From a virus: 17,807 bases of DNA. Both the position numbers and the translations under genes were made by a program. The stretch lies in UHGV virus genome UHGV-1943956. One strand, written 5' to 3'. The notes under the pieces are model-generated. The model was not told where the DNA came from and did not search any database. It saw only the letters and a list, made by a program, of their open reading frames with translations. Positions 622-17,807 of the stretch are shown piece by piece (positions within the stretch are counted from its first letter, which is position 1; the number at the start of each line of letters is the position of its first letter).

Positions 622-626
622 CAACA

Positions 627-1819: not shown

Positions 1820-1831
1820 CAGTCACCTCTT

Positions 1832-2878
1832 TTACCCAAGCACGCCAGTTGCAAAGGCGTGATCAAGAAAACGAAAAATTAAATCAACCTGAGAACCATG
1901 CTTTTCTTCGAACGCCAGAGGATCCGCATGAAGCTCGTTGTGATGCTCCCGACACAGCGGTAGCGTGAAAATATCGTGAGATTTTGTCCCCATTCCGCCC
2001 TGACCATGACCAATCAGGTGATGGGGATCGTCGGCTGGCTTACCACAACACGCACACGGCTGTGTCTTCACCCAGCGTGTGTATTTCTCGTTAACCCAGC
2101 GGCGACGTTTAGGTCGTTTCATGAAAGATTCCGGAGACTCAGGATCAACGGCAATGCTGACCACCGTCTCTTCCTGTGGCGGGTTTTGCTGGTGGGCGTG
2201 AGGCAGCGGCGCAAGATTTTTTGTGCGCTGCTTCAGTATGCTGGTGGCGGTCTGCTCTCCCGGTACGATGTCGCTTTCACGGTACATTGAGCGGATTTTT
2301 TCCGCACGCAACCCCAGCGAACGACGTAATACCGCTTCCGGTAGCGCGTCCGCCACCTGATTGCGGACCGCCCACCAGGATAATTCAGCCAGCGATAATT
2401 CCCGCTCCTGCGAGCCATTCATTGCATGGCGTATGACGTCAATCATCCATGCAGACAGGTTTTGGTGAGCAAGTTGCCCGAGTGATTCGGAGGTCTGGTC
2501 GCGCAGCTGGTTGTCGCAGTGCCAGCACAACACCATTGCGCCGGTACCATAACGGTGAATGACGGTTTCACTGTGGTGATAATCGCCGTGTGGCCACTGG
2601 CAGGATTTAACATGGCGCAGTAACCAGTCAGACAATGCGCCAGCGCCACCAGCAGCACGAATCACTCGTTCGTCGCTGAAAAATGGCAGTAATGATTTAT
2701 CCTCCGCCAGCGGCTGGCGAACGGCAGGAACGACCCCGGACGGCAGATTACGCATGCTTTTCGGTTCCGGCTCCACCAGTACCCGGGTATTGTGGAATAC
2801 CGGCATGGATTCACGGCCCGGCTTAACGATCACCAGCCCGAGTTCCGGTACCAGAACAGGTCGAAGTAATACCCGCAC
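1832..2878 (-). CDS. DUF968-family protein (YdfU-like) with C-terminal Cys/His-rich HNH-like motif
   Basis: 348 aa with GTG start at 2878 preceded by ggagg. C-terminal block [28 protein letters not shown]...LCREHHNELH. Paralogous to 16423-17412. Confidence 0.8.
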   Translation of the reverse strand: MRVLLRPVLVPELGLVIVKPGRESMPVFHNTRVLVEPEPKSMRNLPSGVVPAVRQPLAEDKSLLPFFSDERVIRAAGGAGALSDWLLRHVKSCQWPHGDYHHSETVIHRYGTGAMVLCWHCDNQLRDQTSESLGQLAHQNLSAWMIDVIRHAMNGSQERELSLAELSWWAVRNQVADALPEAVLRRSLGLRAEKIRSMYRESDIVPGEQTATSILKQRTKNLAPLPHAHQQNPPQEETVVSIAVDPESPESFMKRPKRRRWVNEKYTRWVKTQPCACCGKPADDPHHLIGHGQGGMGTKSHDIFTLPLCREHHNELHADPLAFEEKHGSQVDLIFRFLDHAFATGVLG

Positions 2879-2879
2879 G

Positions 2880-3152
2880 TTACCTCCAGATGCGTTGCTG
2901 GAATGTGCGGGACGGACGCGGTGGGCGTTCAGAGTAAGGAAGCCTGACGGAGATTATCCAGTGACGATAATCGAGGCTGAGGGCTTTCTTAATCTCGTAT
3001 CCGCGTCTGCGGTAGTTATGAATTAGCCATTCGGCCTGTTCTTCAGTACATGGTGGGTGTTGGTACCAGTCGGTTTTAAATGCGTGTGAACGCCGCCCAT
3101 GCCGGATGGCAAGGTCGGTATCAGAATTGTGAAATTTGGTTTTGTGCGCCAT
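2880..3152 (-). CDS. Hypothetical 90-aa protein at the position Rem occupies in the Qin prophage
   Basis: ORF stop overlaps the DUF968 start region. Lies between hok and DUF968 as in the Qin order quuQ-ydfU-rem-hokD. I cannot confirm sequence identity to Rem from memory. Confidence 0.5.
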   Translation of the reverse strand: MAHKTKFHNSDTDLAIRHGRRSHAFKTDWYQHPPCTEEQAEWLIHNYRRRGYEIKKALSLDYRHWIISVRLPYSERPPRPSRTFQQRIWR

Positions 3153-3221
3153 CTGTTTTCTCTGCTGGCGCAGCAGGTGTCAGGTGTTCAGGCTGACGTG
3201 CGAATTGTAAACCAGAATGCC

Positions 3222-3250
3222 AGAAAAAAACAAAACCCGCCGAAGCGGGT
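3222..3250 (-). terminator. Intrinsic terminator downstream of hok
   Basis: Minus strand reads aaCCCGCttcgGCGGGttttgttttttt: a GC stem-loop followed by a long U-tract, about 70 nt after the hok stop codon. Confidence 0.55.
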
Positions 3251-3319
3251 TAAGTGCGGGTGCGTTGAGGATGCCTGACACATCAGAGGTGGCGAGGGAT
3301 TTCTCCCCCGCCAGGTCTC

Positions 3320-3475
3320 TTACTCCTCAGGTTCGTAAGCTGTGAAGACAGCGACCTCCGTCTGGCCGGTTCGGAGTCGTACCTCGCAGAGGTCTTTCCT
3401 CGTTACCAGTGCCGTCACTATGACGGTTAAACAGATGACGATCAGGGCGATTAACATCGCCTTTTGCTGCTTCAT
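3320..3475 (-). CDS. hokD: Hok-family type I toxin (HokD/RelF-like), 51 aa
   Basis: Hand translation of the reverse complement gives MKQQKAMLIALIVICLTVIVTALVTRKDLCEVRLRTGQTEVAVFTAYEPEE. This is a single transmembrane helix followed by the Hok signature LCEVR.R.G..EVA. SD aaggag lies 8 nt upstream. Absent from the ORF track because it is under 60 aa. Confidence 0.85.
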   Translation of the reverse strand: MKQQKAMLIALIVICLTVIVTALVTRKDLCEVRLRTGQTEVAVFTAYEPEE

Positions 3476-3488
3476 AGCCTGCTTCTCC

Positions 3489-3518
3489 TTGACCTTTCGG
3501 TCCGTAAGAGGCTAATCT
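3489..3518 (+). promoter_or_regulatory. Candidate promoter for a Sok-like antisense RNA
   Basis: Plus strand has TTGACC (3489-3494), an 18-bp spacer and TAATCT (3513-3518), directly upstream of and antisense to the hok translation-initiation region. This matches hok/sok architecture. The 3' end of the antisense RNA is undefined. Confidence 0.3.
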
Positions 3519-3733
3519 CTATGTGTCGCATAGATATGGCCTCAGATTAATGTTAAGCGTCTTGCAGGACGCGTAATGTTAACTGGGGCTTTTCTCTATC
3601 TGCCTTTTGGTGTTCATGCCTGAGACAGATAGCCTCAAGCACCCGCAGTTATTCTACTTAACTAAGATTTCCCCGCAAACCGTTTTTGTCCGGCACAGTA
3701 AATATCCAACTAAACCAATGGCGTTCGCTGTAT

Positions 3734-3952
3734 TTACCGCCAGTATTCAATGCACATGACCGCCATGAACACCCCTAAAAAAAGGGCATTTATATGTCCA
3801 AACATTAATATCAAAACATCAATTTTTTCCATATACCTTGCTGTGAAGATGATGGGCATACATGATGCGAACAACCAGAACGCAACAAACAAAAACTGCA
3901 ATGCGTTTTTCATTATTCCCCCTACAATCAATGTGCAATAACATTTAAACAC
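3734..3952 (-). CDS. Small hydrophobic membrane protein (72 aa) in an AT-rich island
   Basis: Strong SD (agggggaa) 5-6 nt upstream of the ATG at 3952. Sequence is highly hydrophobic with two predicted TM segments. Local AT content is clearly higher than the flanks. Confidence 0.5.
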   Translation of the reverse strand: MFKCYCTLIVGGIMKNALQFLFVAFWLFASCMPIIFTARYMEKIDVLILMFGHINALFLGVFMAVMCIEYWR

Positions 3953-4033
3953 ACCTCAATTTGGCCGGACATATAAATATCTAAACCAGAAAAAATCACT
4001 TACATAGCGTTACAAACTCTTTAGTCTAAATAT

Positions 4034-4549
4034 TCATCGTAAAACATCCTCCACGCTTATCAGTCCATTTCGTTTCAGGTAATCCATCGCCTTCTCCGGT
4101 AATTTGCAGTCCGGCTGAGCTTTTTTCAGTTGACTGACCAGTCGTTTAACCCACATTGTTAATTCGCTAACCTGATTGCCGGATGCTGGTGGATTGTCGG
4201 CTTTACCCAGAATGGCAGCGCAGCAGGCCTCTCTGAGCACCCAGTCAACAGCATCCTTCCATGCTCCTGTTTCGACTGGCGGATTCTCACGCTTTACCTG
4301 TTCATAAAAGCGCACGGCTTTAACCAGTCCTTCTGATGTCACCGGGACTGGCGGGCCGATGAATAAGGCCTGAATTTCATAGTTCGGCCTGTCGTTACAA
4401 TCCTCTTTTGTCGGTACATATTTCCAGTCACCAGCCCACGGCTTCCCCTGAAAGTCTGTAACGTCTTTTTTCACGTAGCGATATCGCCATGCAACTGGTT
4501 TTGCCTGCCCTGCCGTTTCATGCCCTTCCTGATAATTAATCTCGCTCAT
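4034..4549 (-). CDS. Ea22-like family protein, paralog 1
   Basis: 171 aa starting MSEINYQ, the N-terminal signature shared with 5459-5881 and 5878-6564 and resembling lambda Ea22. ATGA overlap with the upstream small ORF. Confidence 0.7.
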   Translation of the reverse strand: MSEINYQEGHETAGQAKPVAWRYRYVKKDVTDFQGKPWAGDWKYVPTKEDCNDRPNYEIQALFIGPPVPVTSEGLVKAVRFYEQVKRENPPVETGAWKDAVDWVLREACCAAILGKADNPPASGNQVSELTMWVKRLVSQLKKAQPDCKLPEKAMDYLKRNGLISVEDVLR

Positions 4550-4722
4550 TCATCGCCCCACTCATCACAATATGCTTCGACCGGAGTTTTTCCTGCTTCA
4601 TAATCATCACGCCATGCTTCAGCATCAGCAGCACTGCCACCACGTAACTCTGCATAGTCCATTAACAGTTCATGCCATGCTTCAAAACTGACGTTGTATT
4701 TAGTTGAACCAAAATCAGCCAT
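4546..4722 (-). CDS. Hypothetical small acidic protein (58 aa), not in the ORF track
   Basis: Hand translation gives MADFGSTKYNVSFEAWHELLMDYAELRGGSAADAEAWRDDYEAGKTPVEAYCDEWGDE. SD-like gaggaag upstream. Stop overlaps the next start (ATGA). Fills an otherwise empty 165-bp gap in a tightly packed operon. Confidence 0.4.
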   Translation of the reverse strand: MADFGSTKYNVSFEAWHELLMDYAELRGGSAADAEAWRDDYEAGKTPVEAYCDEWGDE

Positions 4723-4897
4723 TTTGCTCTTCCTCTTCGTCTTTTATTTCGTGATATGAGTAATTGCAGTAGTTAAAGAAAATATCTTTTGCTTCGTCAT
4801 GTATTTCATCAGGCGTCGCATCATCATCCACTTCGAATTCATCCTCGAAATCTCCACCGGCTATTTCCGTTTCAATAATTATTTTAAACTTTCGCAT
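4715..4897 (-). CDS. Hypothetical small acidic protein (60 aa)
   Basis: ORF within the leftward operon, rich in Asp/Glu. Its start is preceded by an unusual hairpin between the SD and the ATG. Confidence 0.45.
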   Translation of the reverse strand: MRKFKIIIETEIAGGDFEDEFEVDDDATPDEIHDEAKDIFFNYCNYSYHEIKDEEEEQNG

Positions 4898-4990
4898 TTA
4901 ACTACCGCCCTTTCGGGCGGCCTCCTGATGTTCTGAGGGTGCAGAAATCCCTCCGGTTAAGGATTAAATTTTTAACAGAGCTAAATTTAA

Positions 4991-5347
4991 TTATTCAGTT
5001 CTGGATTTTGTCGCCCTGCGTATCCGCGCTTTCGCGTTACGCTCAATCTGAATTAGCTTTTCTATATTTTTTCGCCTTTCCCGCTCCTCCTGGCGCAAGT
5101 GCCTTACATCATCTGCCAGTCTGGTTTCTCTTTTCGCCACAGAGAGCATCCAGTCAAATGGCTCCACAACTGCACCGCAGATTTTACAGCGGACCTGACG
5201 CTCTTTTTCGTCAACCCGGACAGAGGCGTGATGACAATATGGTCTTTCCGATGGCTCATAAAGAAAATTAACCTGATTACGAGGGTCATCCTCTTTTACC
5301 GGAAATAAAACGATATTGCTTAACTCATCCTCTGGTTTTATTTCCAT
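4991..5347 (-). CDS. Hypothetical protein with Cys/His zinc-ribbon-like motif (118 aa)
   Basis: Strong SD aaggagagg upstream of the ATG at 5347. Motif CHH...CKIC followed by a basic, coiled-coil-like C-terminus. Confidence 0.65.
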   Translation of the reverse strand: MEIKPEDELSNIVLFPVKEDDPRNQVNFLYEPSERPYCHHASVRVDEKERQVRCKICGAVVEPFDWMLSVAKRETRLADDVRHLRQEERERRKNIEKLIQIERNAKARIRRATKSRTE

Positions 5348-5458
5348 GCTCCTCTCCTTTGATGCGAATGCCAGAGACGCGTAATGCGTGTTCTAGGTCA
5401 ATCAGGTAAAGCCAACTGCCATTTTCTTTAGGTATCATGACTTGTCGCTCATCTGCAT

Positions 5459-5881
5459 TTATCGGGTGTCCATATCGAAGGTCGTAGCGAGTCGGTAATT
5501 GAACTTCCCGCGCTTCCAGTTCAGCAATACGCTTGCACCCATCAGAGATAACTCCCTCGTAATACTCGCGCTGCTCGTTGAGTTNNNNNNNNNNNNNNNN
5601 NNNNNNNNNNNNNNNNNNNNNNNNNNNNNNNNNNNNNNNNNNNNNNNNNNNNNNNNNNNNNNNNNNNNNNNNNNTCTTTCCCGTTCATCCAGTAGTGCCA
5701 GCACGGTTTCTGGTCCGGTCAGAAATTTGAAGGCATTGAGCGCATCAATATCCACACCGTAATCTTTAAGTTCCTGTTCACTTAACAAATCATCATCAGC
5801 TGGCAACATTAACAGGCGTTCCATTGCTGGAATTGCACGTTCCGCCACCTCACGCAGTGACTGGTAATTAATTTCGCTCAC
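5459..5881 (-). CDS. Ea22-like family protein, paralog 2, interrupted by an assembly gap
   Basis: GTG start preceded by aaggagg. N-terminus MSEINYQSLREVAE... and LALLDERER, which resembles lambda Ea22. The reading frame crosses a 90-nt N run, so the 3' part and true length are unverified. Confidence 0.45.
   Translation of the reverse strand: MSEINYQSLREVAERAIPAMERLLMLPADDDLLSEQELKDYGVDIDALNAFKFLTGPETVLALLDERERXXXXXXXXXXXXXXXXXXXXXXXXXXXXXXNSTSSASITRELSLMGASVLLNWKRGKFNYRLATTFDMDTR
5585..5674. other. Assembly gap (run of 90 N)
   Basis: Ninety consecutive ambiguous bases. The real length and sequence are unknown. Confidence 0.99.
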
Positions 5882-6564
5882 TGGTTGCCTCCTTTGCGAA
5901 GCTGGGCAGCAAAGTCAACTAACCACTCCGTCATTTCAACCTTCCCTACCAGGTCTGAACCAGGGTGCATACAGCAATCACTCTGCGCCGCTTTGAAATC
6001 CTTATACTCATATTCTTGGGCCACCAGATTTTTTGCAGCTTCTATAGCAGCATCCACCCCCTGCGCCCGGACTTCAGCCAGGAAAGCATCAGTGGTTGGC
6101 GTTTCAGGTATCTGTCTCCTCATCCGTTCTATTGCATGATTGAACCCGAAGTCTTCCGCGAGAGATACGTCATCCATATTGTCATTGTCATCCTCAATAT
6201 CCCGTGATTCTGGAATTGCAGACTTTATTCCTGCATTCTCCGCTGTCAGCGCCGCGCACTTGGCCTCAAGAGCGGCAACCACTTCCTGATGGTCTTTGTA
6301 CTTAACGTATGAGCCGGAGATGTCATCACCTTCGGTGTTTAGCCATGCGTCATTGCAATTCACTGCGTAGGTTCTGATGCTCATGTTGATGCTCTCCCGC
6401 CCCTGACAGACGCCAGGCCAGTCAATAAAGTATCCGCAATGCCTACCCTCAGACGTGCGCGCAGGATAAATGCCGTTATGACCCGGCATAATATATGCTA
6501 CCCATTCATCTTGCGTTGCCTGTTCCGCCGCCTCGCGCAGTGCCTGATAGTCAATCTTGCTCAC
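5878..6564 (-). CDS. Ea22-like family protein, paralog 3
   Basis: 228 aa with GTG start preceded by aaggagg. N-terminus MSKIDYQALREAAEQATQDEW resembles lambda Ea22. Its stop overlaps the start of paralog 2 (GTGA). Confidence 0.7.
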   Translation of the reverse strand: MSKIDYQALREAAEQATQDEWVAYIMPGHNGIYPARTSEGRHCGYFIDWPGVCQGRESINMSIRTYAVNCNDAWLNTEGDDISGSYVKYKDHQEVVAALEAKCAALTAENAGIKSAIPESRDIEDDNDNMDDVSLAEDFGFNHAIERMRRQIPETPTTDAFLAEVRAQGVDAAIEAAKNLVAQEYEYKDFKAAQSDCCMHPGSDLVGKVEMTEWLVDFAAQLRKGGNQ

Positions 6565-6865
6565 TGGCAGCCTCCTTTGCCGGGATTTCTAACTTTTGAG
6601 TGGTTGTATCAAATTCAAACAACTTAACCACGTCATCAAACAGGACATAATCACCATCAGGATCTTCAGTCATATCTGCGCCACAATCCTGACCGCACGA
6701 GTCGCAACCATCCATATCAAGCTCGTATCGCTTCAGGTTTGCGATATTTGATAAATTCAGCGCCAGTACAGCCAGGTCATAAACCTCTTCGGCAGTGACA
6801 TCGCTGTTCAGTCCCATTTCATGGCGATATATGATTTTTTCTACTCGTTGTTTTGTGATCGTCAT
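6551..6865 (-). CDS. Hypothetical protein (104 aa from the ATG at 6865)
   Basis: Track ORF 6551..6889 begins at a TTG. The ATG at 6865 has a ggag SD upstream. The C-terminal region is acidic with a CDSCGQDCG motif. Start choice is uncertain; ATG 6817 is an alternative. Confidence 0.45.
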   Translation of the reverse strand: MTITKQRVEKIIYRHEMGLNSDVTAEEVYDLAVLALNLSNIANLKRYELDMDGCDSCGQDCGADMTEDPDGDYVLFDDVVKLFEFDTTTQKLEIPAKEAASEQD

Positions 6866-7136
6866 TTTTCTCTTCACTCCGATATACAAGGATTACTACA
6901 CCCCCTCTGCTGATTGCGCGAGCTGGATCCCCTGGTTCCATGCCGTCAATTCCGAAGGCTTCGGAAAACGCATTCATTGCCTTCTGGCGTTCATCCTGCT
7001 TACGGCGTTTATTCCATTTTTTCAGGAACAACAGCGACAGCCACCGTCCGCTGCAGAACACGATGTAAAAATAACCAAGGAGCGCCAGGCCGACATTCAG
7101 GGCCGTTTCTATGGTTAGTTGTGAGTCAGTTGCCAT
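6819..7136 (-). CDS. Hypothetical single-pass membrane protein (105 aa)
   Basis: Hydrophobic segment LNVGLALLGYFYIVFCSG followed by a basic KKWNKRRKQDERQK stretch. SD-like aggtaag upstream. Confidence 0.5.
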   Translation of the reverse strand: MATDSQLTIETALNVGLALLGYFYIVFCSGRWLSLLFLKKWNKRRKQDERQKAMNAFSEAFGIDGMEPGDPARAISRGGVVILVYRSEEKNDDHKTTSRKNHISP

Positions 7137-7374
7137 TTCTTACCTGTTTAAGTAACTGGTTGAACATAACACTTAGGGGATTGCTGTATCCAAACGGCAG
7201 ATTGTTTACGCAGTACAGAATCATTTTGTTTTTTTCTCCAGTTCGTACTATTAACCCATTCCACAATAACCGTGATAATTCATTACTGATAGAAGTTGCG
7301 CTTCTTCCAAGTGCGAGGGATATATCTTCTCTACTGCAATCTGGATTTTCCTGGATATACTCGATAACGGTCAT
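7126..7374 (-). CDS. Hypothetical small protein, possible winged-helix DNA-binding (82 aa)
   Basis: The ATG at 7374 has SD aaaggga 6 nt upstream, which I prefer over the track start at 7416 that has no SD. Segment SREDISLALGRSATSISNELSRLL is HTH-like. Confidence 0.5.
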   Translation of the reverse strand: MTVIEYIQENPDCSREDISLALGRSATSISNELSRLLWNGLIVRTGEKNKMILYCVNNLPFGYSNPLSVMFNQLLKQVRNGN

Positions 7375-7384
7375 GTGGTCCCTT

Positions 7385-7966
7385 TTACTTAATATCTGTT
7401 TCGGATTGCATGCCATGAGTATTCATTTCGTTAATAATTTCATCCAGAAGGATTTCAAGCCCTTCTCGACCCATATCTGAAAGAATGAAACCTTTATCAG
7501 GGGAAGTAGTGAGCATTTTCTGATAAAGAAACAGCGCTCTTCCCATTCCTTCAGTTTCGCCGTATTTTTGAATTAAATTCCATTCAATATACTGTTGTAA
7601 GGCAAATCGAATGGGGCCGGGATATATCGTCATAAACCCATACATCCCGTTATATACCACGGCGTGTTCAGTTGTTCCGTGTTCATTCAGGATATCAATT
7701 GTGCCGTTCTTGTCTTCTTCTTCGTTGATGAATGTCGTCACATACAACCATCGCCACTGAGCAACCTTCATCTCAACCGGAAGTTTACCCAGTAATCCTG
7801 CTTCGTCGGCTTGCGCCAGACACTGAAGGATACGTAAACCTCGCACATTAGGAGTATCGAATTCTCCGGCATCCAGACGACGTATGGCGTCGTGATAATC
7901 AATCGTCATACTGCCAGTTCGTATACCATTGGCTGTTGCTTCAGCCTGGAATTCATCGTATTGCAT
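7385..7966 (-). CDS. Hypothetical protein (193 aa), no recognisable family
   Basis: SD gagga upstream of the ATG at 7966. Starts 5 nt after the stop of the upstream 62-aa acidic ORF. Confidence 0.6.
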   Translation of the reverse strand: MQYDEFQAEATANGIRTGSMTIDYHDAIRRLDAGEFDTPNVRGLRILQCLAQADEAGLLGKLPVEMKVAQWRWLYVTTFINEEEDKNGTIDILNEHGTTEHAVVYNGMYGFMTIYPGPIRFALQQYIEWNLIQKYGETEGMGRALFLYQKMLTTSPDKGFILSDMGREGLEILLDEIINEMNTHGMQSETDIK

Positions 7967-7971
7967 GATAT

Positions 7972-8160
7972 TTATTCCTCATCTTCATCTTCATCTGCTG
8001 GTGCAATAACGTCATATCCTGCCTTTTCTGCAATAAACAGGAATGTTGAAAGAGTTCCTACAAGTTCATCGTCATGAACATGGCGAATGAATATTACTTT
8101 CCCGTTTTTGATGGTCAGCAATATTCTGGTTTGTTCGTGTTCTGCTGTTTTCTGATGCAT
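7972..8160 (-). CDS. Hypothetical small protein with polyacidic C-terminal tail (62 aa)
   Basis: SD gggag upstream. C-terminus APADEDEDEE. Immediately precedes the 193-aa gene. Confidence 0.5.
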   Translation of the reverse strand: MHQKTAEHEQTRILLTIKNGKVIFIRHVHDDELVGTLSTFLFIAEKAGYDVIAPADEDEDEE

Positions 8161-8354
8161 TATTATCTCCCGTATGCTTTACGCAGAAATAAGCAGGCAA
8201 TATGCATGTAATTTTCACCGTATTGTGCAATAAGGCAGGCGGTCTTGTGTGATGCCATATTCTTTATAAAAGTCACAATAAAGCCTCCTGTGGTTTAAGG
8301 TTGTAACAATCCCCGGCGATAAAACCGCAATAAACGTTCAAGGCATATTTGTTG

Positions 8355-8720
8355 TTATTGCGCTAATTCTTTTTCGGCAGCAGCTTTTGTATACTCACAT
8401 GCAAAACTCAGAATTTCGCTGCCGAGTGTTTTCGTTTCGTGATTACTGGACATATGTAATACCTGTGTTGCATGCAATAAATGATAAACATTTACCGCAA
8501 ATGAATCAGGCTCCAGGCAAATGCCTTCGTAATTATCTTGCTGTGAGGTTGTTTCTGTCATTGCTCCTGAAGTGCATACGAGCCTGTTTTTGACAATTCT
8601 CTTTTCTCTAATCACTATATCGGCAACATCTATTGCCTTTACAACCTCCGGGAGAAGTTCCGGGTTTGTATAATCAAAGTCATCAACATGGAGAACAGTT
8701 ATGTTTTCGAACTTTTTCAT
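8355..8720 (-). CDS. Hypothetical protein (121 aa)
   Basis: SD gagga 5 nt upstream of the ATG at 8720. No family recognised. Confidence 0.55.
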   Translation of the reverse strand: MKKFENITVLHVDDFDYTNPELLPEVVKAIDVADIVIREKRIVKNRLVCTSGAMTETTSQQDNYEGICLEPDSFAVNVYHLLHATQVLHMSSNHETKTLGSEILSFACEYTKAAAEKELAQ

Positions 8721-8848
8721 GGTTTCCTCAGCTGACTTATATGTTCTGCTATATAGCGAGTCTCAGAAGTGTTTTCATATTGAGACTGTTTCCGCAATGA
8801 TTGATAAAAATGTTCGCATGTACCTTGAGGGGCGAAGCGGCGATTATG

Positions 8849-9352
8849 TCACCATTGGTATTGGTTCTTCCGTAGAAGAGCTTCGCGAGATAAGGGGCAA
8901 ACTTGTTGAGATGCGTCATGGTGTTGCTGCTCCTCACTTTTTGGTTGCTCCGGAGGAGTAACCTCACCAGTTAACAGCCACATCGGATCGCAGCCAAGAA
9001 TATTTGCCAGTGGGATAAGCATACTGATAGTTGGTTCATACTCTCCGCTCTCCCACTGGATGATAATTTCTTCATCGAGATCGAGCAGCCTGGCGAGTTC
9101 GGCGGTTGTTAAGCCGCAGGCTTCGCGTTGGGTGCGAAGACGGGTGTTGATTGCAGAATTTTTGTTCTGTAAAAGCATTGCTGACGATAGCTTTCTGGAT
9201 ATGCTATTTGTCATATCCCATGCCAGTCCTGCGCATGACTCTATATCGCTAGAGAGCGTAGCATCAGGTGTTGCTTTTGCTATTAGTGTAATGAGGCTGC
9301 CGAGGTTTTTCAGTTCTTCGAGACAGTCAAGAGTTGTAGCTTTATTGATCAT
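8849..9352 (-). CDS. HTH (XRE-type) DNA-binding protein with N-terminal extension (167 aa); first gene after the left operator
   Basis: Central HTH segment LRTQREACGLTTAELARLLDLDEEIIIQWESGEYEPTISMLIPLANILG. SD-like gaggt upstream of the ATG at 9352. The internal ATG at 9178 is an alternative start. Confidence 0.55.
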   Translation of the reverse strand: MINKATTLDCLEELKNLGSLITLIAKATPDATLSSDIESCAGLAWDMTNSISRKLSSAMLLQNKNSAINTRLRTQREACGLTTAELARLLDLDEEIIIQWESGEYEPTISMLIPLANILGCDPMWLLTGEVTPPEQPKSEEQQHHDASQQVCPLSREALLRKNQYQW

Positions 9353-9392
9353 GAGATGATACCTCAGTTACGAACTTTGTTTTATGGTAACT

Positions 9393-9431
9393 AAGGTATC
9401 AAGGTGTGGCAAGTGATTTTTGATACTTTGG
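9393..9431. promoter_or_regulatory. Left operator/promoter region (OL/PL-like)
   Basis: Inverted pair AAGGTATCAA (9393-9402) and TTGATACTTTGG (9420-9431) shares the TTGATAC core with the sites near OR. It lies directly downstream of the repressor gene and upstream of the leftward operon. Candidate -35 and -10 hexamers on the minus strand overlap it. Confidence 0.45.
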
Positions 9432-9455
9432 TTTCTTTTTGTGTTTTGTGTCTGG

Positions 9456-10112: not shown

Positions 10113-10134
10113 TTTTCTTCTCCTCTCATGGCTG

Positions 10135-10208
10135 TTGATACTAAAGTAACAGAATTTCTTGATACTTTGGATTCCTGTGGTTAACATCGTTGAATAACAA
10201 AGTATCTG
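10135..10208. promoter_or_regulatory. Right operator/promoter region (OR with divergent PR and PRM-like promoters)
   Basis: Three copies of the operator core: TTGATACTAAAG (10135-10146), TTGATACTTTGG (10159-10170) and an inverted GATACTTTG (10198-10206). A plus-strand candidate PR has TTGATA (10159-10164), a 17-bp spacer and TAACAT (10182-10187). Confidence 0.5.
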
Positions 10209-10223
10209 GTGTGAGACTAAAGA

Positions 10224-10451
10224 ATGACCCTTTATGAAATATTAAAAATTCAATTTAAAACCAATGCCGCTATTGGTCGCAGGTTCCCAAAGAAAGGAAG
10301 GCCTCGTGGCAGTCAAGGTGTTGGAAAGTGGAAAACGCGAGGTGTTCCGGAGGATGTTGCCATTCTTTGTCATCTGGATCCGAGCATTCCATATACACAC
10401 CCAAGTCTAGCGAATACAGAAGATGACAAGCCCACAGGAGACCAACAATGA
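10224..10451 (+). CDS. Hypothetical small basic protein at the cro position (75 aa)
   Basis: Its stop overlaps the start of the next gene (ATGA). It has a weak SD and no obvious HTH, and could instead be an untranslated leader. Confidence 0.3.
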   Translation: MTLYEILKIQFKTNAAIGRRFPKKGRPRGSQGVGKWKTRGVPEDVAILCHLDPSIPYTHPSLANTEDDKPTGDQQ

Positions 10452-11155
10452 ACACCGCAATTTTTAACGGCAAAGCATCCATGACCAGCGTTGAGATCGC
10501 AGAGCTGGTGGGAAGCCGACCAGATAGTGTTAAGAGAACTATTGAAACACTGGCTAAAAAGGGAATCATCCAATTTCCACAGACTGTGGAAATTGAGAAT
10601 AAACAATCACTTGGGCCTCGCCGATTTTCTAGCGCGTATGTATTCGAAGGTGAACGAGGTAAGCGCGACAGCATCATTGTCGTCGCACAGCTCTGTCCTG
10701 AATTCACATCTCGCCTGGTAGATCGCTGGCGCGAACTGGAAGAACAGATCCGTAAGCCAATGAGCGAAATCGAAATGGTTGCCGCGATGGCTCTTGAAGC
10801 CGTTCGCCAACAGAAACGGATCACTCAGGTGGAAGAAAAAGTCAGCCACGTTGCTGAAACAGTCGAGCAAATTAAAAAGGGCACTATTCGTGAGGGCTAT
10901 GCCGGATATCGCCAACTGAAAGCAAAAACCGGTTTGTCAGATGATAAATGCCGCAATCTGGTGAACGCCTATCAAATTCCTACAGACACCCATGAGTTCA
11001 TGACGCCGGACGGATTGTTGTCACGTCGCGCAATTGTTGCTGTGGAACCGTTTATGGCTGCTTTTTATCGGGTTATGGAGGAAGCAGAACCGCGAGGGAC
11101 TCGCTGGTATCACCCGAAAATGGGGTTATTTCAGGTTATTGGTTGGCAGCGGTGA
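10448..11155 (+). CDS. Putative phage regulatory protein with Rha-like N-terminal DNA-binding domain (235 aa)
   Basis: SD aggag 9 nt upstream. N-terminal MTSVEIAELVGSRPDSVKRTIETL matches the pattern of the Rha N-terminus seen in the next gene. Confidence 0.6.
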   Translation: MNTAIFNGKASMTSVEIAELVGSRPDSVKRTIETLAKKGIIQFPQTVEIENKQSLGPRRFSSAYVFEGERGKRDSIIVVAQLCPEFTSRLVDRWRELEEQIRKPMSEIEMVAAMALEAVRQQKRITQVEEKVSHVAETVEQIKKGTIREGYAGYRQLKAKTGLSDDKCRNLVNAYQIPTDTHEFMTPDGLLSRRAIVAVEPFMAAFYRVMEEAEPRGTRWYHPKMGLFQVIGWQR

Positions 11156-11343
11156 AAAAAAGCCGGGAGTAACCCGGCTCACTCAACATCAATAACGGGG
11201 AGCTGTTTCGCATAAAACGGCTCCGAAACATCCAAGAACAGTTCTAAAGATATCAGCAGCTATATGATCATTTCAAGACCAAATATTGATTCTGCAATTT
11301 CGGGACGTTACACTGTCTCCGCACCTTATAAAGCGGGTGCCGG

Positions 11344-11369
11344 GATTGGCGTCCTGAAATTCGCACATG
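11344..11369. repeat. Direct repeat copy 1 (GATTGGCGTCC...AAATTCGCACATG)
   Basis: GATTGGCGTCC at 11344-11354 and AAATTCGCACATG at 11357-11369. Both segments recur at 11509-11549. Confidence 0.6.
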
Positions 11370-11374
11370 CGCAT

Positions 11375-11397
11375 AACCGCGCTTCAGCGGTTTTTTT
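11375..11397 (+). terminator. Candidate intrinsic terminator inside the rightward operon
   Basis: AACCGC-gcttca-GCGGTT stem-loop followed by TTTTT, lying between the two direct-repeat copies. Confidence 0.4.
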
Positions 11398-11508
11398 GCG
11401 CACGTTTCCTCACATCCAAATTATGGTGGGGCGTGCAGGGGCATCGAAAGATGCGCCGGGGTCATGTGCGACCGGTTACGCCAACCCTGTACGTCTCACC
11501 ACCTCTGT

Positions 11509-11549
11509 GATTGGCGTCCCATGTGGTGAGTTTTCAAAATTCGCACATG
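11509..11549. repeat. Direct repeat copy 2 (with 15-nt insertion)
   Basis: GATTGGCGTCC at 11509-11519 and AAATTCGCACATG at 11537-11549, ending 12 nt before the Rha start codon. Confidence 0.6.
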
Positions 11550-11560
11550 AGGATGTCACT

Positions 11561-12112
11561 ATGGCAACCACCCCTACCCAAACTCACCCTAAAATTGATG
11601 TTATCCATGGGAAGGCTGTTACCTCTTCTTTGGCCGTTGCCGAATATTTCTGCAAGCAGCACAAAAACGTTATTCAAAAAATCCAGACGCTTGAGTGCTC
11701 TGTTGAATTCACTGAGCTGAATTTTCAGCCCAGTGATTACACCGATTGCACAGGCCGCAAACTACCTTGCTATCAAATCACCCGCGATGGCTTCGCGTTC
11801 CTTGCTATGGGCTTTACTGGCAAACGTGCAGCCCGGTTCAAAGAGGCATACATCAACGCCTTTAACCAGATGGAGAAGAATTTATCTGGTGCTGACGCGG
11901 TTGATATGTCAGCTGTCGCACGAAACGCCAGAGGCGTATACCTGCATTTGCGTGAAATCCATCAAATCTGGACAAGCCAGCTTTATCCAATGCTTAAGGC
12001 CGTTGAATCTCCGCTGGCTAGCAAACTGTACGACCGTGTTGGTGATGCTGTTTTTGGCGCTGCACTTGTTGATTCCAGGCTGAATGGTTCTGACAAGGAG
12101 GTTCGCCCATGA
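11561..12112 (+). CDS. Phage regulatory protein, Rha family
   Basis: The ATG at 11561 has SD gagga 8 nt upstream. Sequence VTSSLAVAEYFCKQHKNVIQKIQTL...GRKLPCYQITRDGFAFLAMGFTGKRAARFKEAYINAFNQMEK matches the Rha family signature. The 99 upstream in-frame codons of the track ORF are treated as non-coding. Confidence 0.8.
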   Translation: MATTPTQTHPKIDVIHGKAVTSSLAVAEYFCKQHKNVIQKIQTLECSVEFTELNFQPSDYTDCTGRKLPCYQITRDGFAFLAMGFTGKRAARFKEAYINAFNQMEKNLSGADAVDMSAVARNARGVYLHLREIHQIWTSQLYPMLKAVESPLASKLYDRVGDAVFGAALVDSRLNGSDKEVRP

Positions 12113-12303
12113 TTAGTTACGAAATCATCATCTCCACTACGGAATACAGAAACGATGTATCAGTTCGCACGGATGTATCTGTCTGGCACCGTCGCTATAA
12201 ATCCAGAAAAACAGCGGAACTGAAAGCGGCAGAGATGTGTGAAACCATCTCAATGAAAGGTAGCCCGGTTAAATACGTAACTACGGCGGAGGTGCGTCCA
12301 TGA
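12109..12303 (+). CDS. Hypothetical small protein (64 aa)
   Basis: ATGA overlap with the Rha stop. Part of a tightly coupled operon. Confidence 0.5.
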   Translation: MISYEIIISTTEYRNDVSVRTDVSVWHRRYKSRKTAELKAAEMCETISMKGSPVKYVTTAEVRP

Positions 12304-12524
12304 TCCGCCACATCGTTAATTCCCTGTATCACCGATACAACCGTTGCCCCCGTGTGGGGCAGTGGTTCGCCACCAGCAACGGTCACGTTCTGCGGGTTTG
12401 CCTAGTCAACGCTGAAAGCCAGAAAGTCGTGTGCGAACTACAGGGGCGTAGCTACACCATCAGTTACCCTCTGGCGGTATTTCTGTCTGGAAAAATGTTT
12501 AAGCGTCTGGGAGGTGTGGCGTGA
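12300..12524 (+). CDS. Hypothetical small protein (74 aa)
   Basis: Start overlaps the upstream stop. In-operon position. Confidence 0.5.
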   Translation: MIRHIVNSLYHRYNRCPRVGQWFATSNGHVLRVCLVNAESQKVVCELQGRSYTISYPLAVFLSGKMFKRLGGVA

Positions 12525-12820
12525 ACTGTTTTCAGTTTGTGTGCGGATGTGCTTTCGATAACCCGATTCAGCGCCTGATTATGTTGCGTGTTTTGATGTC
12601 GGGTTCTTCAGACGGTGAAGGCGAGAGAGTTATTGATCATCAGGTGCTTGCTGATTTCTGCTGTTGTTCTAAGCAAGCGATATTCAGGGAAACCCTGGCA
12701 CTGGAAAGAGCTGGTTATCTTCATATCCGAAAAATTGCAACGCTTACTATTGATGCAAAAGCCAGACTACAACCTGCGCGTGGCTACACAATTCTCATGC
12801 CGCGGAAGGAGGTTGTATGA
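12521..12820 (+). CDS. Hypothetical protein, possible DNA-binding (99 aa)
   Basis: GTG start preceded by ggagg. Its stop overlaps the start of the O-like gene. Confidence 0.55.
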   Translation: MNCFQFVCGCAFDNPIQRLIMLRVLMSGSSDGEGERVIDHQVLADFCCCSKQAIFRETLALERAGYLHIRKIATLTIDAKARLQPARGYTILMPRKEVV

Positions 12821-13809
12821 GCCGTTACGCCCCCACACCGGAAGTTATGGCTATTGGTCAAATTAATATTTCCGGCAATGTTACACCTGCGAACTGGTGG
12901 AAATATATTCGACTACCCAGTGGGCGTCCGGATGCGACGGCTATCGCTCTGCTTTCAGAGATCGTTTACTGGTACCGCCCGACAGAGGTCAGGGATGAGC
13001 ACACCGGAGCGTTGCTGGGATATCGCAAGCGTTTTCAGGGCGACAAACTGCAAAGAAGCTACCAGGCGTTTGCTGAGCAGTTTGGTTTCGGGAAAAGGGA
13101 AACCGCAGATGCGCTGAAGCGTCTGCGCGATGCAGGGTTTATTACTCTGGATTTACGCACGGTGGAAATGCTCGATGGGGTGAAATGCAGCAATATTTTG
13201 TTTGTCGGGATCAACCCACAGGCAATTGCGGCCATCACCACACCTTCTTCTGTTTCGCCAGAAAGTAACAGCAATAATGCAATCAGCGATACAGCTATTA
13301 CGTTAAAACGGAACACCCCCCGACGTCATAACGGAACAGGGGATACGCCGAATGTTGATACAAATACAGAGATTACTACAGAGATTACAACGGAGACTAA
13401 AAACACTATTGATGCGTCCGCTGACGCGTCTGCGCCAGCGCGTTCTGCCCGACAGGAATATTCACCGGAATTTGAACAGGCCTGGCAGGAATATCCCAAA
13501 CGTGCTGGTGGCAATTCCAAGTCAGCAGCCTTCAAAGCCTGGAAAGCCCGTATCAGGGAGGGAATAAAACCGGAGACCATGCTTGATGGCGTGAAGCGGT
13601 ATGCCGCTTGGGTACGTGCTACAGGAAATACCGGCACACAGTTCGTGAAGCAGGCTGCGACGTTCTTTGGACCCGATCGTCACTTCGAAGATTACTGGCA
13701 ACAGCCAGCCGCTCACGGAGGTGGGCGACAGCGACAGGTCGATGTCCTGGCTGGCCTGGGAGCCATGTCTGACAAATTCGGTAAATCCAGTAACAAATTG
13801 ACATTCTGA
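12817..13809 (+). CDS. Putative replication initiation protein (O-like replisome organiser)
   Basis: Strong SD ggaaggagg. Directly precedes the DnaC-like and DnaB-like genes. Has a low-complexity linker (TEITTEITTETK, DASADASA) and a conserved-looking C-terminal block EFEQAWQEYPKRAGGNSKSAAFKAWKARI. Function assigned from position and architecture. Confidence 0.65.
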   Translation: MSRYAPTPEVMAIGQINISGNVTPANWWKYIRLPSGRPDATAIALLSEIVYWYRPTEVRDEHTGALLGYRKRFQGDKLQRSYQAFAEQFGFGKRETADALKRLRDAGFITLDLRTVEMLDGVKCSNILFVGINPQAIAAITTPSSVSPESNSNNAISDTAITLKRNTPRRHNGTGDTPNVDTNTEITTEITTETKNTIDASADASAPARSARQEYSPEFEQAWQEYPKRAGGNSKSAAFKAWKARIREGIKPETMLDGVKRYAAWVRATGNTGTQFVKQAATFFGPDRHFEDYWQQPAAHGGGRQRQVDVLAGLGAMSDKFGKSSNKLTF

Positions 13810-13819
13810 GGTGACAGCG

Positions 13820-14719
13820 ATGATGACGATTGACCAACGTGAGAAACAAACAAGACTACAGGCGCGAATGGATGAGTTACGGGCAGAAATGGATGAGTTA
13901 CGGGCAGAGATTGCATTTGCTCAGAAGGGCGAAAAGCCATGGCCTTATCGTTCCTGCCTGATGCGTGAAGGTCGCGGATATTGCGAAAAACACGGTAAAT
14001 ATCGTACGCATATACTGGTGTGGATCGATCGTAATGGCGAGGACAGAGAAAAAATTTCATGCTGCCCTGACTGCTTGATCGCTGAGGCCAGTGATTTGAC
14101 CATGGAACTGTCGTCCCTCAAGGCGGAAGAACTGACTGATAACGCCGGAATTGCTCTGCGTTTTCGGGACTGCGAGTTTGATAATTATCTGGAGGTTAAT
14201 CCTGACGCAGCCAGAAATCTTGCGGCCTGTCGCCGCTATGCGGAGAACTGGCCAGATATGCTGGAGAACGGTACCAGTCTTGTTATGACCGGCAGTTGCG
14301 GTACCGGGAAAAATCATCTGGCGGTATCAATGGCAAAACACATCATCCGTAACTATCTGGCCAGTGTGGAGATCACCGACGTGATGCGCCTTACCCGGGC
14401 TGTGAAAAACTGCTGGCGGAATGACAGTGAAAAAACAGCGGATGACGTCATTGAGCATTATGCGTCACTGGATTTGCTGATTGTCGACGAAGTCGGCGTT
14501 CAGTTTGGCAGTGCGGCTGAAATGGCCATTTTGCAGGAAATTATCAATGCCCGGTATGAGGGTATTTTGCCAACTATCCTGATCAGCAACCTTTCACCGG
14601 AAGAATTGTGGGCGTTCATCAGTCCCCGGATTGCCGACAGAATCACCGATGGCGGGCGCAACTGGTTGTCGTTTAACTGGCCCAGCTACCGTTCTCGTAT
14701 CGGAGGTGTTGCCGCATGA
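13820..14719 (+). CDS. DnaC-like helicase loader (AAA+ ATPase) with N-terminal Cys-cluster extension
   Basis: Walker A GSCGTGKNHLA and Walker B LLIVDEVG. The ATG at 13820 is preceded by gaggtg. N-terminal cysteines (C..C...CC..C). Confidence 0.85.
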   Translation: MMTIDQREKQTRLQARMDELRAEMDELRAEIAFAQKGEKPWPYRSCLMREGRGYCEKHGKYRTHILVWIDRNGEDREKISCCPDCLIAEASDLTMELSSLKAEELTDNAGIALRFRDCEFDNYLEVNPDAARNLAACRRYAENWPDMLENGTSLVMTGSCGTGKNHLAVSMAKHIIRNYLASVEITDVMRLTRAVKNCWRNDSEKTADDVIEHYASLDLLIVDEVGVQFGSAAEMAILQEIINARYEGILPTILISNLSPEELWAFISPRIADRITDGGRNWLSFNWPSYRSRIGGVAA

Positions 14720-16116
14720 CCAGCCAGAACACCCCGGCATGGCGTAACGATGACCTGGAAGGCGCTGTCATCGGTGCGTTTTTTCTGCGTGGGGCCGATC
14801 CGGAAGTGATGGATATTCTGGCCACACTTCCGGCGGATGTATTTTTTGTGCGTCAGTACCGGGATATTTACGCGGGGATTTGCAGACAGGCTCGCATATC
14901 CGGCGTCATTGACCCCGTACTGCTGTGCAATGAGATGCCGGAACTTGCCCCGGTGATTACCGACACCGGACGCAAAACCTGGGTGAAGTCTTCACTGGAG
15001 CACTATGTCGCAGCGTTGCGGCGCAATGCCGCACTGCGCGATGCAGAAAAAACACTGACTGAAGCATTACAGAATTTACGTGATGCGTATACCTGTGAAG
15101 CAGCCGAGGATGCCCTGAAGGATGTGCAGAACATGATGGCCTCACTGTCGACCGGAAAGGGCGTCATTCAGCCGGTTCACATTGATGATGTCCTTCCGGA
15201 AGTGGTCGACCGTGTTGAATGCCGCAATCAGGGACTGGAGAAATCCAGGGCGCTGATGACCGGTATTGATGAACTGGACGCAAAAACGGGCGGTATGGAG
15301 CCCGGAGACCTGGTATTCATTGCCGCCCGTCCTTCGATGGGGAAAACCGAACTTGCGCTGGACATCATCGACAAGGTGACTGAGCAGGGGCATGGCGTGC
15401 TTCTGTTCACCATGGAGATGGCGAACATCCAGATTGGTGAACGTATGGTGTCTGCTGCCGGTGGAATGCCGGTATCCCGTCTTAAGTCTGTTGCCCGTTT
15501 TGAAGATGAAGACTGGGCGCGTTTCTCGCAGGGCGTGGGACGAATGACGGGGCGTAATATCTGGATGGTGGATCAGGCAAACCTGACCATTGATGAGATA
15601 TGTGCAACCACGAAGCACCACCGGATGAAACACCCGGAAACGGCGCTGGTGGTGGTCGATTACCTCGGTCTGATTAAAACCCGCAGCACGGGGCGTCACG
15701 ACCTTGCTGTGGGGGAAATCTCAAAGGGACTTAAAAGCCTGGCAAAATCCGGCGGTTTCCCGCTGATTGCTCTGAGCCAGCTCTCCCGAGGCGTGGAATC
15801 CAGACCCAATAAACGTCCCATGAACTCAGACCTGAAAAACTCCGGGGAAATAGAGGCTGATGCCGACATCATTCTGATGCTTTACAGGGATGAGGTGTAT
15901 AACCCGGATACACAGGCCAGAGGCATAGCAGAAATCAACATCACGAAACAGCGTAATGGCACACTCGGGACCATTTACCGGCGTTTTCATAACGGACATT
16001 TTCTGCCTGTGGACCAGGAGAGTGCCCGGGTTCTTTCCACACCCATGACGCCGGGCAATCCGCGCAGATACAGCAATAACCGCATGTCGGGCAGTAAAAC
16101 GGAGCGTTTATTTTGA
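14716..16116 (+). CDS. Replicative DNA helicase, DnaB family
   Basis: 466 aa. Walker A ARPSMGKTELALD, Walker B-like VVVDYLGLI, and DnaB-like C-terminal motifs. SD ggaggtg. Confidence 0.9.
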   Translation: MTSQNTPAWRNDDLEGAVIGAFFLRGADPEVMDILATLPADVFFVRQYRDIYAGICRQARISGVIDPVLLCNEMPELAPVITDTGRKTWVKSSLEHYVAALRRNAALRDAEKTLTEALQNLRDAYTCEAAEDALKDVQNMMASLSTGKGVIQPVHIDDVLPEVVDRVECRNQGLEKSRALMTGIDELDAKTGGMEPGDLVFIAARPSMGKTELALDIIDKVTEQGHGVLLFTMEMANIQIGERMVSAAGGMPVSRLKSVARFEDEDWARFSQGVGRMTGRNIWMVDQANLTIDEICATTKHHRMKHPETALVVVDYLGLIKTRSTGRHDLAVGEISKGLKSLAKSGGFPLIALSQLSRGVESRPNKRPMNSDLKNSGEIEADADIILMLYRDEVYNPDTQARGIAEINITKQRNGTLGTIYRRFHNGHFLPVDQESARVLSTPMTPGNPRRYSNNRMSGSKTERLF

Positions 16117-16370
16117 ACAACAGAACAATCACTGTTTCACCGGAACAACTTCGTCGGCAGGCGCAGGAGATGCTTCGTTGTGCTGAACAGATGGAAAAAA
16201 CGAGCGTGAAAAAAGATACGCTCCGCAAGCAGCTTACTCCGGCGCTTCGTGATCTGCTGCAGGCAAAACACCGCACACAAAAGGCGGTGGATGAGCTGGT
16301 GGATTGCGTGGCGGAACTGGAAGGACAGGTAAGCCAGTTTGAAACGCTGGTGAAGGAGTTTACTGCGTGA
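16113..16370 (+). CDS. Hypothetical coiled-coil protein (85 aa)
   Basis: TTG start overlapping the dnaB-like stop. Heptad-like charged sequence. Confidence 0.5.
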   Translation: MNNRTITVSPEQLRRQAQEMLRCAEQMEKTSVKKDTLRKQLTPALRDLLQAKHRTQKAVDELVDCVAELEGQVSQFETLVKEFTA

Positions 16371-16422
16371 TGGCTGAATTTTTTTCTCCTGCGTTCATGC
16401 AATACCGTTCGCTGAGGTGACC

Positions 16423-17412
16423 GTGAGAGCACTGCTGACCCCTGAAATTGCCCCGCGTATGGGGATCGTCTTGTTCAGACCCGGTTCAGAGCTGATGCCC
16501 CTGTTTATGCAGGGGCGTGTCCTGCTGGAGCCTGAGCCGGAACGTTATTCATCTTTTGCCAGTGGTGCCGTTCCGGCAGCATCACAACCGCTGGCGGATG
16601 ATCCTGCCGTTCGGGCCGTGTTCCGCCATGAGGCGGTGATCCGTCGTGCTGGTGGCGTGGAATGCCTTGAGAGCTGGTTACTTCGTGAAAAAGGCTGCCA
16701 GTGGCCTCATTCCGGATGGCACAGCGAGAACATGACCACAATGCGACACGCGCCGGGCGCAATCCGTCTGTGCTGGCACTGCGATAACCTGCTTCGCGAT
16801 CAGTTCACGGAACGTCTGGAATCAATGGCAACGGATAACTGTGCCCGCTGGGTGTTGTCCGTAGTCCGTCGTGATCTCGGTTTTGATGACAGCCACGTTG
16901 TGACAATGCCGGAACTGTGCTGGTGGCTGGTTCGTAATGACCTGGCGGATGCCTTACCGGAAAGTGCAGCCCGTAAGGCACTGAGATTACCGAAGCCTGT
17001 TGTGCCGTCTGTCACCCGGGAAAGTGACCTTGTGCCTTCGGTTCCTGCCACCAGCATCATCCGGGATAAGGCGAAAAAGGTGCTGGCGCTGAAAGTGGAT
17101 CCGGAGTCGCCGGAGTCTTTTATGTTACGCCCCAAACGTCGTCGCTGGGTTAATGAAAAGTACACGCGCTGGGTTAAGACGCAGCCGTGTGCATGTTGTG
17201 GTAAGCCAGCCGACGATCCTCATCACCTGATTGGTCATGGTCAGGGTGGAATGGGTACAAAAGCGCATGACCTTTTTGTGTTGCCTTTGTGCAGAAAACA
17301 CCATGACGGACTGCATGCGGATACCGTGGCATTTGAAGAGAAGTATGGTTCCCAACTGGAGCTGATATTTCGTTTTATCGATCGCGCGCTGGCGATTGGT
17401 GTGCTGTCCTGA
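16423..17412 (+). CDS. DUF968-family protein, paralog 2, with C-terminal Cys/His HNH-like motif
   Basis: I prefer the GTG at 16423 (SD gagg 5 nt upstream); it aligns with the MRVLL start of the paralog at 1832-2878. The C-terminal ~100 aa are nearly identical to that paralog. Confidence 0.8.
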
Positions 17413-17429
17413 TTTTGTGGAGAAAGTTG

Positions 17430-17807
17430 ATGCGTGATATTCAGATGGTTCTCGAACGCTGGGGAGCATGGGCGGCAAATAATCATGAGGATGTGACCTG
17501 GTCGTCCATTGCTGCCGGTTTTAAGGGATTAATTCCTTCAAAAGTAAAATCTCGCCCGCAATGTTGTGACGATGACGCGATGATCATTTGCGGGTGCATG
17601 GCCCGTCTGAAAAAGAACAACAGCGATTTGCATGATTTATTGGTGGACTATTATGTCGGCGGCATGACTTTTATGGCGCTTGCACGTAAGCATGGGCGAT
17701 CTGATTGTTGGGTTGGCAGGATGCTCCAGAAAGCTGAGGGCGTAGTGGAGGGTATGCTGATGGTGTTGGATCTCCGATTGGAGATGGATGGTGATTGTTC
17801 GAAATAA
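17430..17807 (+). CDS. Antitermination protein Q, short form (QuuD-like)
   Basis: The ATG at 17430 is preceded by ggagaaag. Sequence [24 protein letters not shown]...[17 protein letters not shown] matches my recollection of DLP12-type QuuD. It follows DUF968, which fits nin-Q order. Confidence 0.7.

Follow-up and report, generated by a model that had tools for sequence, protein, structure and literature searches.

The window analyzed here, the whole 17,807-nt stretch of the virus genome UHGV-1943956, carries a single immunity region flanked by two late-control modules that face outward on opposite strands, each with a DUF968 gene and a Q-type antiterminator gene, the 3′ ends of the two DUF968 genes forming an inverted repeat. 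Our analyses indicate, with a probability that we put at roughly 75%, that the window is a chimeric short-read assembly product of four Escherichia coli prophages and that the source genome probably contains no such structure. The layout, which an initial annotation had flagged as unusual, is most likely not a real feature.

The closed genome of E. coli AR_0013 (NZ_CP032204.1) served as the reference, and the window was painted with exact matches to it. All 17,717 non-N bases of the window tile as exact matches to four AR_0013 prophage loci, with zero private single-nucleotide polymorphisms (SNPs). The four prophages, here called A, B, C, and D, are located at 4.58, 4.85, 5.25, and 3.65 Mb, respectively, and contribute the following segments.

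1-2404: prophage A (tRNA-Ser/mtfA site), 2,404-nt exact match, from 15001 of locus L001; a small open reading frame (ORF), the long Q gene, the RusA gene, and most of the left DUF968 gene
2171-3485: prophage D (ompW site), 1,315-nt exact match; the 5′ part of the left DUF968 gene, a 90-aa gene, and hokD/sok
3377-5441: prophage A, 2,065-nt exact match; small nin-like genes, as far as the 3′ end of the ead/Ea22-like gene of A
5376-5584: prophage B, 209-nt exact match ending at a run of N
5675-17629: prophage B (mlrA site), 11,955-nt exact match
17514-17807, plus strand: prophage C (DLP12-like, argU site), 294-nt exact match; the 3′ part of the short Q gene

The long B segment at 5675-17629 begins with Ead_Ea22, DUF4752, and early-left genes, followed by a cI-type repressor gene and a cro-like gene, and continues through Rha, Ash/Rha, a DnaC-like loader, the DnaB helicase, the right DUF968 gene, and the 5′ part of Q. 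At each switch the two sources share an identical stretch, of 234 nt for A to D, 109 nt for D to A, 66 nt for A to B, and 116 nt for B to C. Mismatch mapping shows that the differences between the window and prophages A and B are confined to sharp patches, at 2405-3376, at the A-B junction, and at 17630-17807. Within the first of these, A differs from the window by 27 or more SNPs and a 373-nt indel, while positions 2860-3420 are 100% identical to prophage D beside ompW. At 17630-17783, B differs from the window at 46 positions, and 17560-17807 is 100% identical to the Q gene of prophage C beside argU. The short Q protein is identical to that of prophage C, yet the first ~200 nt of its gene are B nucleotide sequence. 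The left end of the window lies 17 nt inside a 95-nt stretch that is identical in A and D. The right end coincides exactly with the stop codon ending the short Q gene, possibly owing to nothing more than the way in which windows were cut.

Both A and B are complete lambdoid prophages of canonical organization in AR_0013, where they lie ~275 kb apart, each with its own integrase, immunity, replication, Q, and late genes. Prophage A, which lies next to tRNA-Ser/mtfA, reads from its late side as late genes, Q, RusA, DUF968, nin-like genes, ead/Ea22, DUF4406, DUF977, and DUF1627, and then P, O-like, YdaT, and Cro, beyond which lie cI-like, DicB, exonuclease, and int. Prophage B, next to mlrA, reads as int, xis, several genes, two copies of ead/Ea22, DUF4752, several further genes, and a LexA-family repressor, to the right of which are two Rha genes, replication genes, DUF968, QuuD, a porin, and late genes. 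Positions 5352-17789 of the window match one prophage at 99.6% in AR_0013, O7:K1 CE10, N32, and OZ546943, and positions 1-5584 match AR_0013 elsewhere, ~275 kb off and on the other strand. Both DUF968 genes coexist in AR_0013; in CE10, in the region examined, the same B early region is present and includes the B copy of DUF968. Thus, the window joins A's Q-to-nin arm to the early-left, immunity, replication, and Q region of B. The suggestion in the initial annotation that two prophages are involved is correct insofar as the modules belong to different prophages, the left one to A and the right one to B. That these prophages are fused back to back is doubtful, given the exact patchwork of four prophages, the N gap within the join tract, and the absence of the switch junctions from 5,426 closed genomes (see below), and the join itself does not lie at DUF968. 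It is located at the following features.

5352-5594, minus strand: ead/Ea22 homology patch, the actual A-to-B join (three-way alignment and SNP table)
5585-5674: 90 consecutive N within the join tract, either an assembly or scaffold gap or a mask; unnoticed in the initial annotation

The three-way alignment shows that A and B of AR_0013 share only ~235 nt at this patch, which corresponds to the 3′ part of an ead/Ea22-like gene. The SNP states at 5371 (C) and 5375 (A) are A-type, the following 66 nt (5376-5441) are identical in A and B, and the T at 5442 is B-type. The longest stretch identical in both, 94 nt, spans 5443-5536, and positions 5537-5577 are not diagnostic. A placement of the switch well before the gap by six "B-type" SNPs (5442-5577) was dropped, since five of these six states also occur in the A-type prophages of strains GN02050 and Eco889. 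In both strains the A-type ead/Ea22 gene continues B-like to ~5712, and only the T at 5442 stays diagnostic. Relative to this wider set of A-type prophages, the switch can be placed only within 5376-5686, an interval that holds the N run. In place of the 90 N, each of the four reference sequences has 94 nt. An estimated scaffold gap is therefore more likely than a base-for-base mask, since the run is 4 nt shorter than every reference and a mask would need a 4-nt deletion in the source. An ORF listed at 5459-5881 spans the N run and is not a reliable gene call.

The ead/Ea22 tract lies in the nin region of A and in the early-left operon of B, and hence on opposite strands in AR_0013 (plus in A, minus in B), although A and B share one orientation of integration. 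The nin regions of the A-type prophages of O104:H4 strains and of GN02050 contain ead/Ea22 modules as well. These modules are mobile and mosaic and occur in either transcriptional context, so that prophages in the same orientation can carry inverted homology patches. More broadly, ead/Ea22, DUF4752, and their small neighbors are found in the early-left operon (toward int) of B-type prophages and in the nin region (toward Q) of A-type prophages; the module occupies 5352-7136 in the window, 16115-16786 in locus L003, and 15117-16549 in locus L004.

Searches for the junctions elsewhere were negative. None of 5,426 closed E. coli genomes holds at least 80% of the window in one place, and the same is true of the junction-centered region 3400-7600. 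In the same set, no genome exceeded 98.9% for the A-D-A patch (2100-3560) or 97.0% for the B-C switch (17250-17807). Among 50,697 phage records, none covers at least 80% of the window or of the junction region, and the best phage matches cover the B part only, in canonical order. Exact-pattern scans for the A-B junction sequence returned zero matches in GTDB representative genomes, IMG/VR, and JGI metagenomes. The exact left DUF968 protein, indexed in 6570 blocks, is a very widespread natural allele, and the 10 contexts listed for it are all canonical prophages; for the exact short Q protein, all nine listed contexts are DLP12-like. In view of how widespread the DUF968 protein is, the A-D-A patch was also considered as a natural allele in its own right, and this was rejected, as none of 10 fetched loci and no closed genome matches its nucleotides across the switch points.

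From the tiling, the switch positions, the gap, and the presence of A and B as separate canonical prophages, we infer that the assembler rather than the cell produced the window. De Bruijn-graph assemblers choose one allele at bubbles and can mis-resolve repeats. The source strain would belong to the same clone as AR_0013 and O7:K1 CE10 and would carry several lambdoid prophages sharing short identical stretches. The assembler would have been of the de Bruijn graph type, one that removes bubbles and resolves repeats before scaffolding with paired reads. Its path would have run along prophage A, taken D's allele where A and D form bubbles, and returned to A. It would then have crossed from A to B within the ~235-nt ead/Ea22 patch, an X-shaped repeat that was mis-resolved, leaving the 90-N gap there, continued along B for 12 kb, and finally passed to C's allele within the Q gene. 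The crossing from A to B would set the Q-RusA-DUF968 arm of A back to back with the early-left, immunity, replication, DUF968, and Q genes of B, creating the illusion of one immunity region between two outward-facing late-control modules. This reading is favored because one cause covers all four switch points. The B-C switch involves direct repeats ~404 kb apart and the A-D-A switches involve loci ~937 kb apart, so that neither can be a simple crossover in a viable chromosome. Repeats are the known limit of short-read bacterial assembly (e.g., PMC2821320).

Further multicopy sequences are found around these loci. The same group II intron reverse transcriptase gene (ltrA, WP_001189111.1), inside an IS3/IS629-family element, lies beside both prophage C and prophage D (L017 5966-7474 and L018 1-1271) and is another repeat able to fragment or mislead short-read assemblies. 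Prophages A and B also encode identical late proteins, namely, the SASA esterase WP_000874509.1, DUF1378, DUF826, and a holin (L001 12261-14222 and L002 31021-32982), and these late-gene copies constitute repeats of kilobase scale that lie outside the region represented in the window, on either side of it.

Several points weigh against an assembly error. In AR_0013 the ead/Ea22 tracts are mutually inverted, and a single real crossover between them would yield exactly this junction. The stretches of perfect identity at the join, 66 nt at the switch and the 209 nt before the gap that match B exactly, exceed the minimal efficient pairing segment of RecA (31-34 bp, compared with 23-27 bp for Red-beta; PMC3945230). 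Zero private SNPs are equally expected for a very recent real rearrangement, and the T at 5442, by which the A-B switch falls in unbroken sequence ahead of the gap, is as compatible with a real recombinant as with a graph chimera. The N run, moreover, could be a mask introduced by the data provider instead of a scaffold gap. Finally, phage recombinases commonly mediate exchange between E. coli prophages (PMC3945230), and several patches of gene conversion in a single strain are thus conceivable.

These points bear on a real join, in which a crossover between the inverted ead/Ea22 tracts inverted the ~275-kb segment and two gene conversions, of D into A at 2405-3376 and of C into B from 17630, occurred in the same lineage. 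The products would be an integrase-less hybrid with two outward late modules around the B immunity region and a reciprocal hybrid with two integrases and without late genes. The occurrence of ead/Ea22 modules in both transcriptional contexts in different prophages is in keeping with such an origin, and E. coli provides documented cases both of prophage-bounded inversions and of exchanges between prophages. However, it would call for three independent events and four switch points within 18 kb, in a strain otherwise indistinguishable from AR_0013, and none of its junctions is found in the 5,426 closed genomes, which include the closest relatives AR_0013, CE10, N32, and OZ546943. In addition, the homology is ~20-fold shorter than the repeats of at least 5 kb seen in known inversions, and an assembly gap falls in the same tract. 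The inversion would also lie within one replichore, as judged from K-12 map positions, which we take to be ~2.04 Mb for mtfA (b1976), ~2.21 Mb for mlrA (b2127), ~1.59 Mb for dif, and ~3.92 Mb for oriC, placing both sites on the same replichore. Inversions within one replichore are generally disfavored. Taken together, we regard a real join with its two conversions, and the hybrid products it predicts, as unlikely, and the specific event at its core, an intra-replichore inversion of ~275 kb through ~235 nt of ead/Ea22 homology that fuses two prophages into an integrase-less element, as slightly less probable again. A deletion between adjacent prophages was rejected as the origin of the join, as it would remove ~275 kb of chromosome on the AR_0013 backbone.

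If the join were real, a single repressor and leftward early promoter would read into a second nin-DUF968-RusA-Q module, and one immunity would control two divergent late regions. Small accessory-gene modules in opposite contexts would then act as hidden inverted repeats between prophages of the same orientation. The inverted ead/Ea22 homology between such prophages could serve, albeit weakly, as a substrate for real inversions, and it is a genuine pitfall for assemblers.

The feature that drew attention to the window is the inverted repeat between the ends of its two DUF968 genes. A Pfam scan of 20 ORFs of the window bears out the gene calls of the initial annotation, a long Q, RusA, two DUF968 genes, a short Q, and one cI-type repressor, and the alignment defines the two repeat arms.

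627-1448, minus strand: long Q-type antiterminator of prophage A (Antiterm, PF03589, E = 2e-49)
1445-1819, minus strand: RusA Holliday-junction resolvase (PF05866, E = 2.6e-17)
1832-2878, minus strand: left DUF968 (YdfU-like) gene, 348 aa, with an HNH-like C-terminal motif (PF06147, E = 1.4e-76; sub-threshold HNHc_6 match)
1839-2149, minus strand: left arm of the inverted repeat, at the 3′ end of the left DUF968 gene, encoding a conserved HNH-like C terminus
9456-10187, minus strand: cI-type repressor of prophage B, with HTH_3 and Peptidase_S24 domains (PF01381 and PF00717)
16417-17412, plus strand: right DUF968 gene, from prophage B, 331 aa (PF06147, E = 2.8e-80)
17095-17405, plus strand: right arm of the inverted repeat, at the 3′ end of the right DUF968 gene
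17430-17807 (17415-17807 in the Pfam scan), plus strand: short Q antiterminator (Phage_antitermQ, PF06530, E = 2.5e-51)

Both DUF968 proteins pass the PF06147 gathering threshold by a wide margin (256.7 and 268.8 bits, compared with a cutoff of 27.8), and the repressor at 9456-10187 marks the sole immunity region of the window. The inverted repeat exists, as does the 26-mer quoted from it (tgttgtggtaagccagccgacgatcc, at 17194-17219), and it reflects homology rather than chance, since the longest inverted exact matches in 10 shuffled sequences were 12-20 nt. It is not, as had been proposed, near-identical with several exact blocks of 26 nt or more. The arms align without gaps over 311 nt at 78.5% identity (244/311), and there are exactly two 26-nt exact blocks, at 17194-17219 and 17221-17246, with one mismatch between them, the next longest runs being 11 nt. 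Third codon positions hold 46 of the 67 mismatches. Over the final 104 codons, the residue is conserved at 87; synonymous differences affect 39 codons and non-synonymous ones 17. The likeness is largely one of protein sequence, the outcome that the initial annotation had itself set against its proposal. On the 5′ side of the repeat, nucleotide identity between the two genes is only ~55%, and the two proteins are 54% identical overall. The repeat encodes the C-terminal half of the DUF968 domain, in which a CxxC...HH...CxxHH motif yields the sub-threshold HNHc_6 match (Pfam). An identity of 78% with mostly synonymous differences marks the arms as anciently diverged copies of a conserved nuclease-like domain under purifying selection, not as a recent duplication.

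The initial annotation had taken this repeat as a recombination substrate, either for a past inversion or for ongoing flipping of the intervening ~15 kb. In its favor, the inverted homology is real and includes the two 26-nt exact blocks, which lie at the Red-beta figure of 23-27 bp. These blocks nevertheless fall short of the 31-34 bp figure for RecA, and the arms have diverged by 22%. Each arm, together with the sequence on either side of it, is 100% colinear with a single AR_0013 prophage, A over 1-2404 and B over 5675-17629, which excludes an exchange at the repeat and contradicts a past inversion there; no crossover footprint is seen. Both genes coexist in AR_0013, and no closed genome among the 5,426 has the rearranged layout. 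The 20 Pfam-scanned ORFs include no invertase or site-specific recombinase, and the RefSeq annotation of the corresponding regions of AR_0013 lists none. A model of inversion through the DUF968 repeat is, on these grounds, highly improbable. The repeat took no part in the join, as judged from the colinear flanks, and its capacity to flip the intervening 15 kb is negligible, making the proposed flipping implausible. In a chimeric assembly, the flagged repeat would be a by-product, conserved C-terminal coding sequence of diverged DUF968 homologs that is opposed only through the join and would have no switching function.

The least probable explanation is that the window represents the natural genome of a single phage with two divergent late-control modules. 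Nothing favors this beyond the window itself, whereas the phage-record search described above found no genome of this kind, and the window carries no integrase.

Additional features were noted in the window. The nin-like region of the left arm contains a hokD-type type I toxin gene at 3320-3475 (minus strand) and a sok antitoxin RNA at 3473-3644 (minus strand; Rfam RF01794, 106.7 bits), and this stretch is the allele of prophage D rather than that of A. Directly downstream of the cro-like gene of prophage B, matches to isrK (RF01394; 11321-11397, plus strand) and C4 antisense RNA (RF01695; 11419-11506, plus strand) lie within the 5′ part of an Ash/Rha-family gene (11264-12112) and recall a c4-ant antirepressor control module of the P1/P7 type or an isrK module of the Gifsy type. 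Just after a 330-aa gene without a Pfam match (12817-13809), at the start of the DnaC-like loader gene, two 21-nt direct repeats stand in tandem at 13857-13898 (TACAGGCGCGAATGGATGAGT and TACGGGCAGAAATGGATGAGT, 81% identical), which may be iteron-like origin repeats or a chance pair.

The window illustrates that draft assemblies of genomes with multiple prophages can yield plausible hybrid prophages, which scans of raw sequence then flag as unusual architecture. Exact-match painting against a closed genome of the same clone is a cheap general diagnostic. When identity is perfect but jumps from one distant locus to another at stretches that the loci share, and one such stretch holds an N gap, the assembler is implicated rather than the cell.

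Comparison of the window with known systems is in line with this reading. With the invertible switches of the Gin/Hin/Cin or fimS type, the window shares only two inverted copies that flank a segment. It differs in that it encodes no invertase and its repeats are coding sequences of 311 nt that have diverged by 22% and lie 15 kb apart; near-identical long repeats, a crossover footprint, and an associated recombinase are all absent. In E. coli O157:H7, prophage-bounded inversions have been mapped to repeats of at least 5 kb and at least 98% identity on either side of Ter and verified with long reads or optical maps (bioRxiv 10.1101/2020.12.02.407981). The window resembles these in having inverted homology in two lambdoid prophages, which could in principle invert a segment and form hybrids, and the geometry in AR_0013 fits. 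In contrast to the O157:H7 cases, the inverted tracts share ~235 nt rather than long near-identical homology, both sites apparently lie on one replichore, and no independent closed assembly supports the arrangement (0/5,426). The closest likeness is to repeat-induced chimeric short-read contigs. As in these, clone-identical segments match different repeat copies without private variants, the switches fall in identical stretches of 66-234 nt, an N gap lies in a repeat, and the junctions are unseen in closed genomes, the difference being that here the evidence is a comparison of sequences rather than of reads. Taken individually, the left half is an ordinary YdfU(DUF968)-RusA-Q module of the Qin/Rac type and the right half is an ordinary DnaB-DUF968-QuuD module of the phiP27/Stx-phage type. 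Each half matches hundreds of prophages and phages with the lambdoid order cro, replication, nin, DUF968, (RusA), Q, and only their juxtaposition is unusual.

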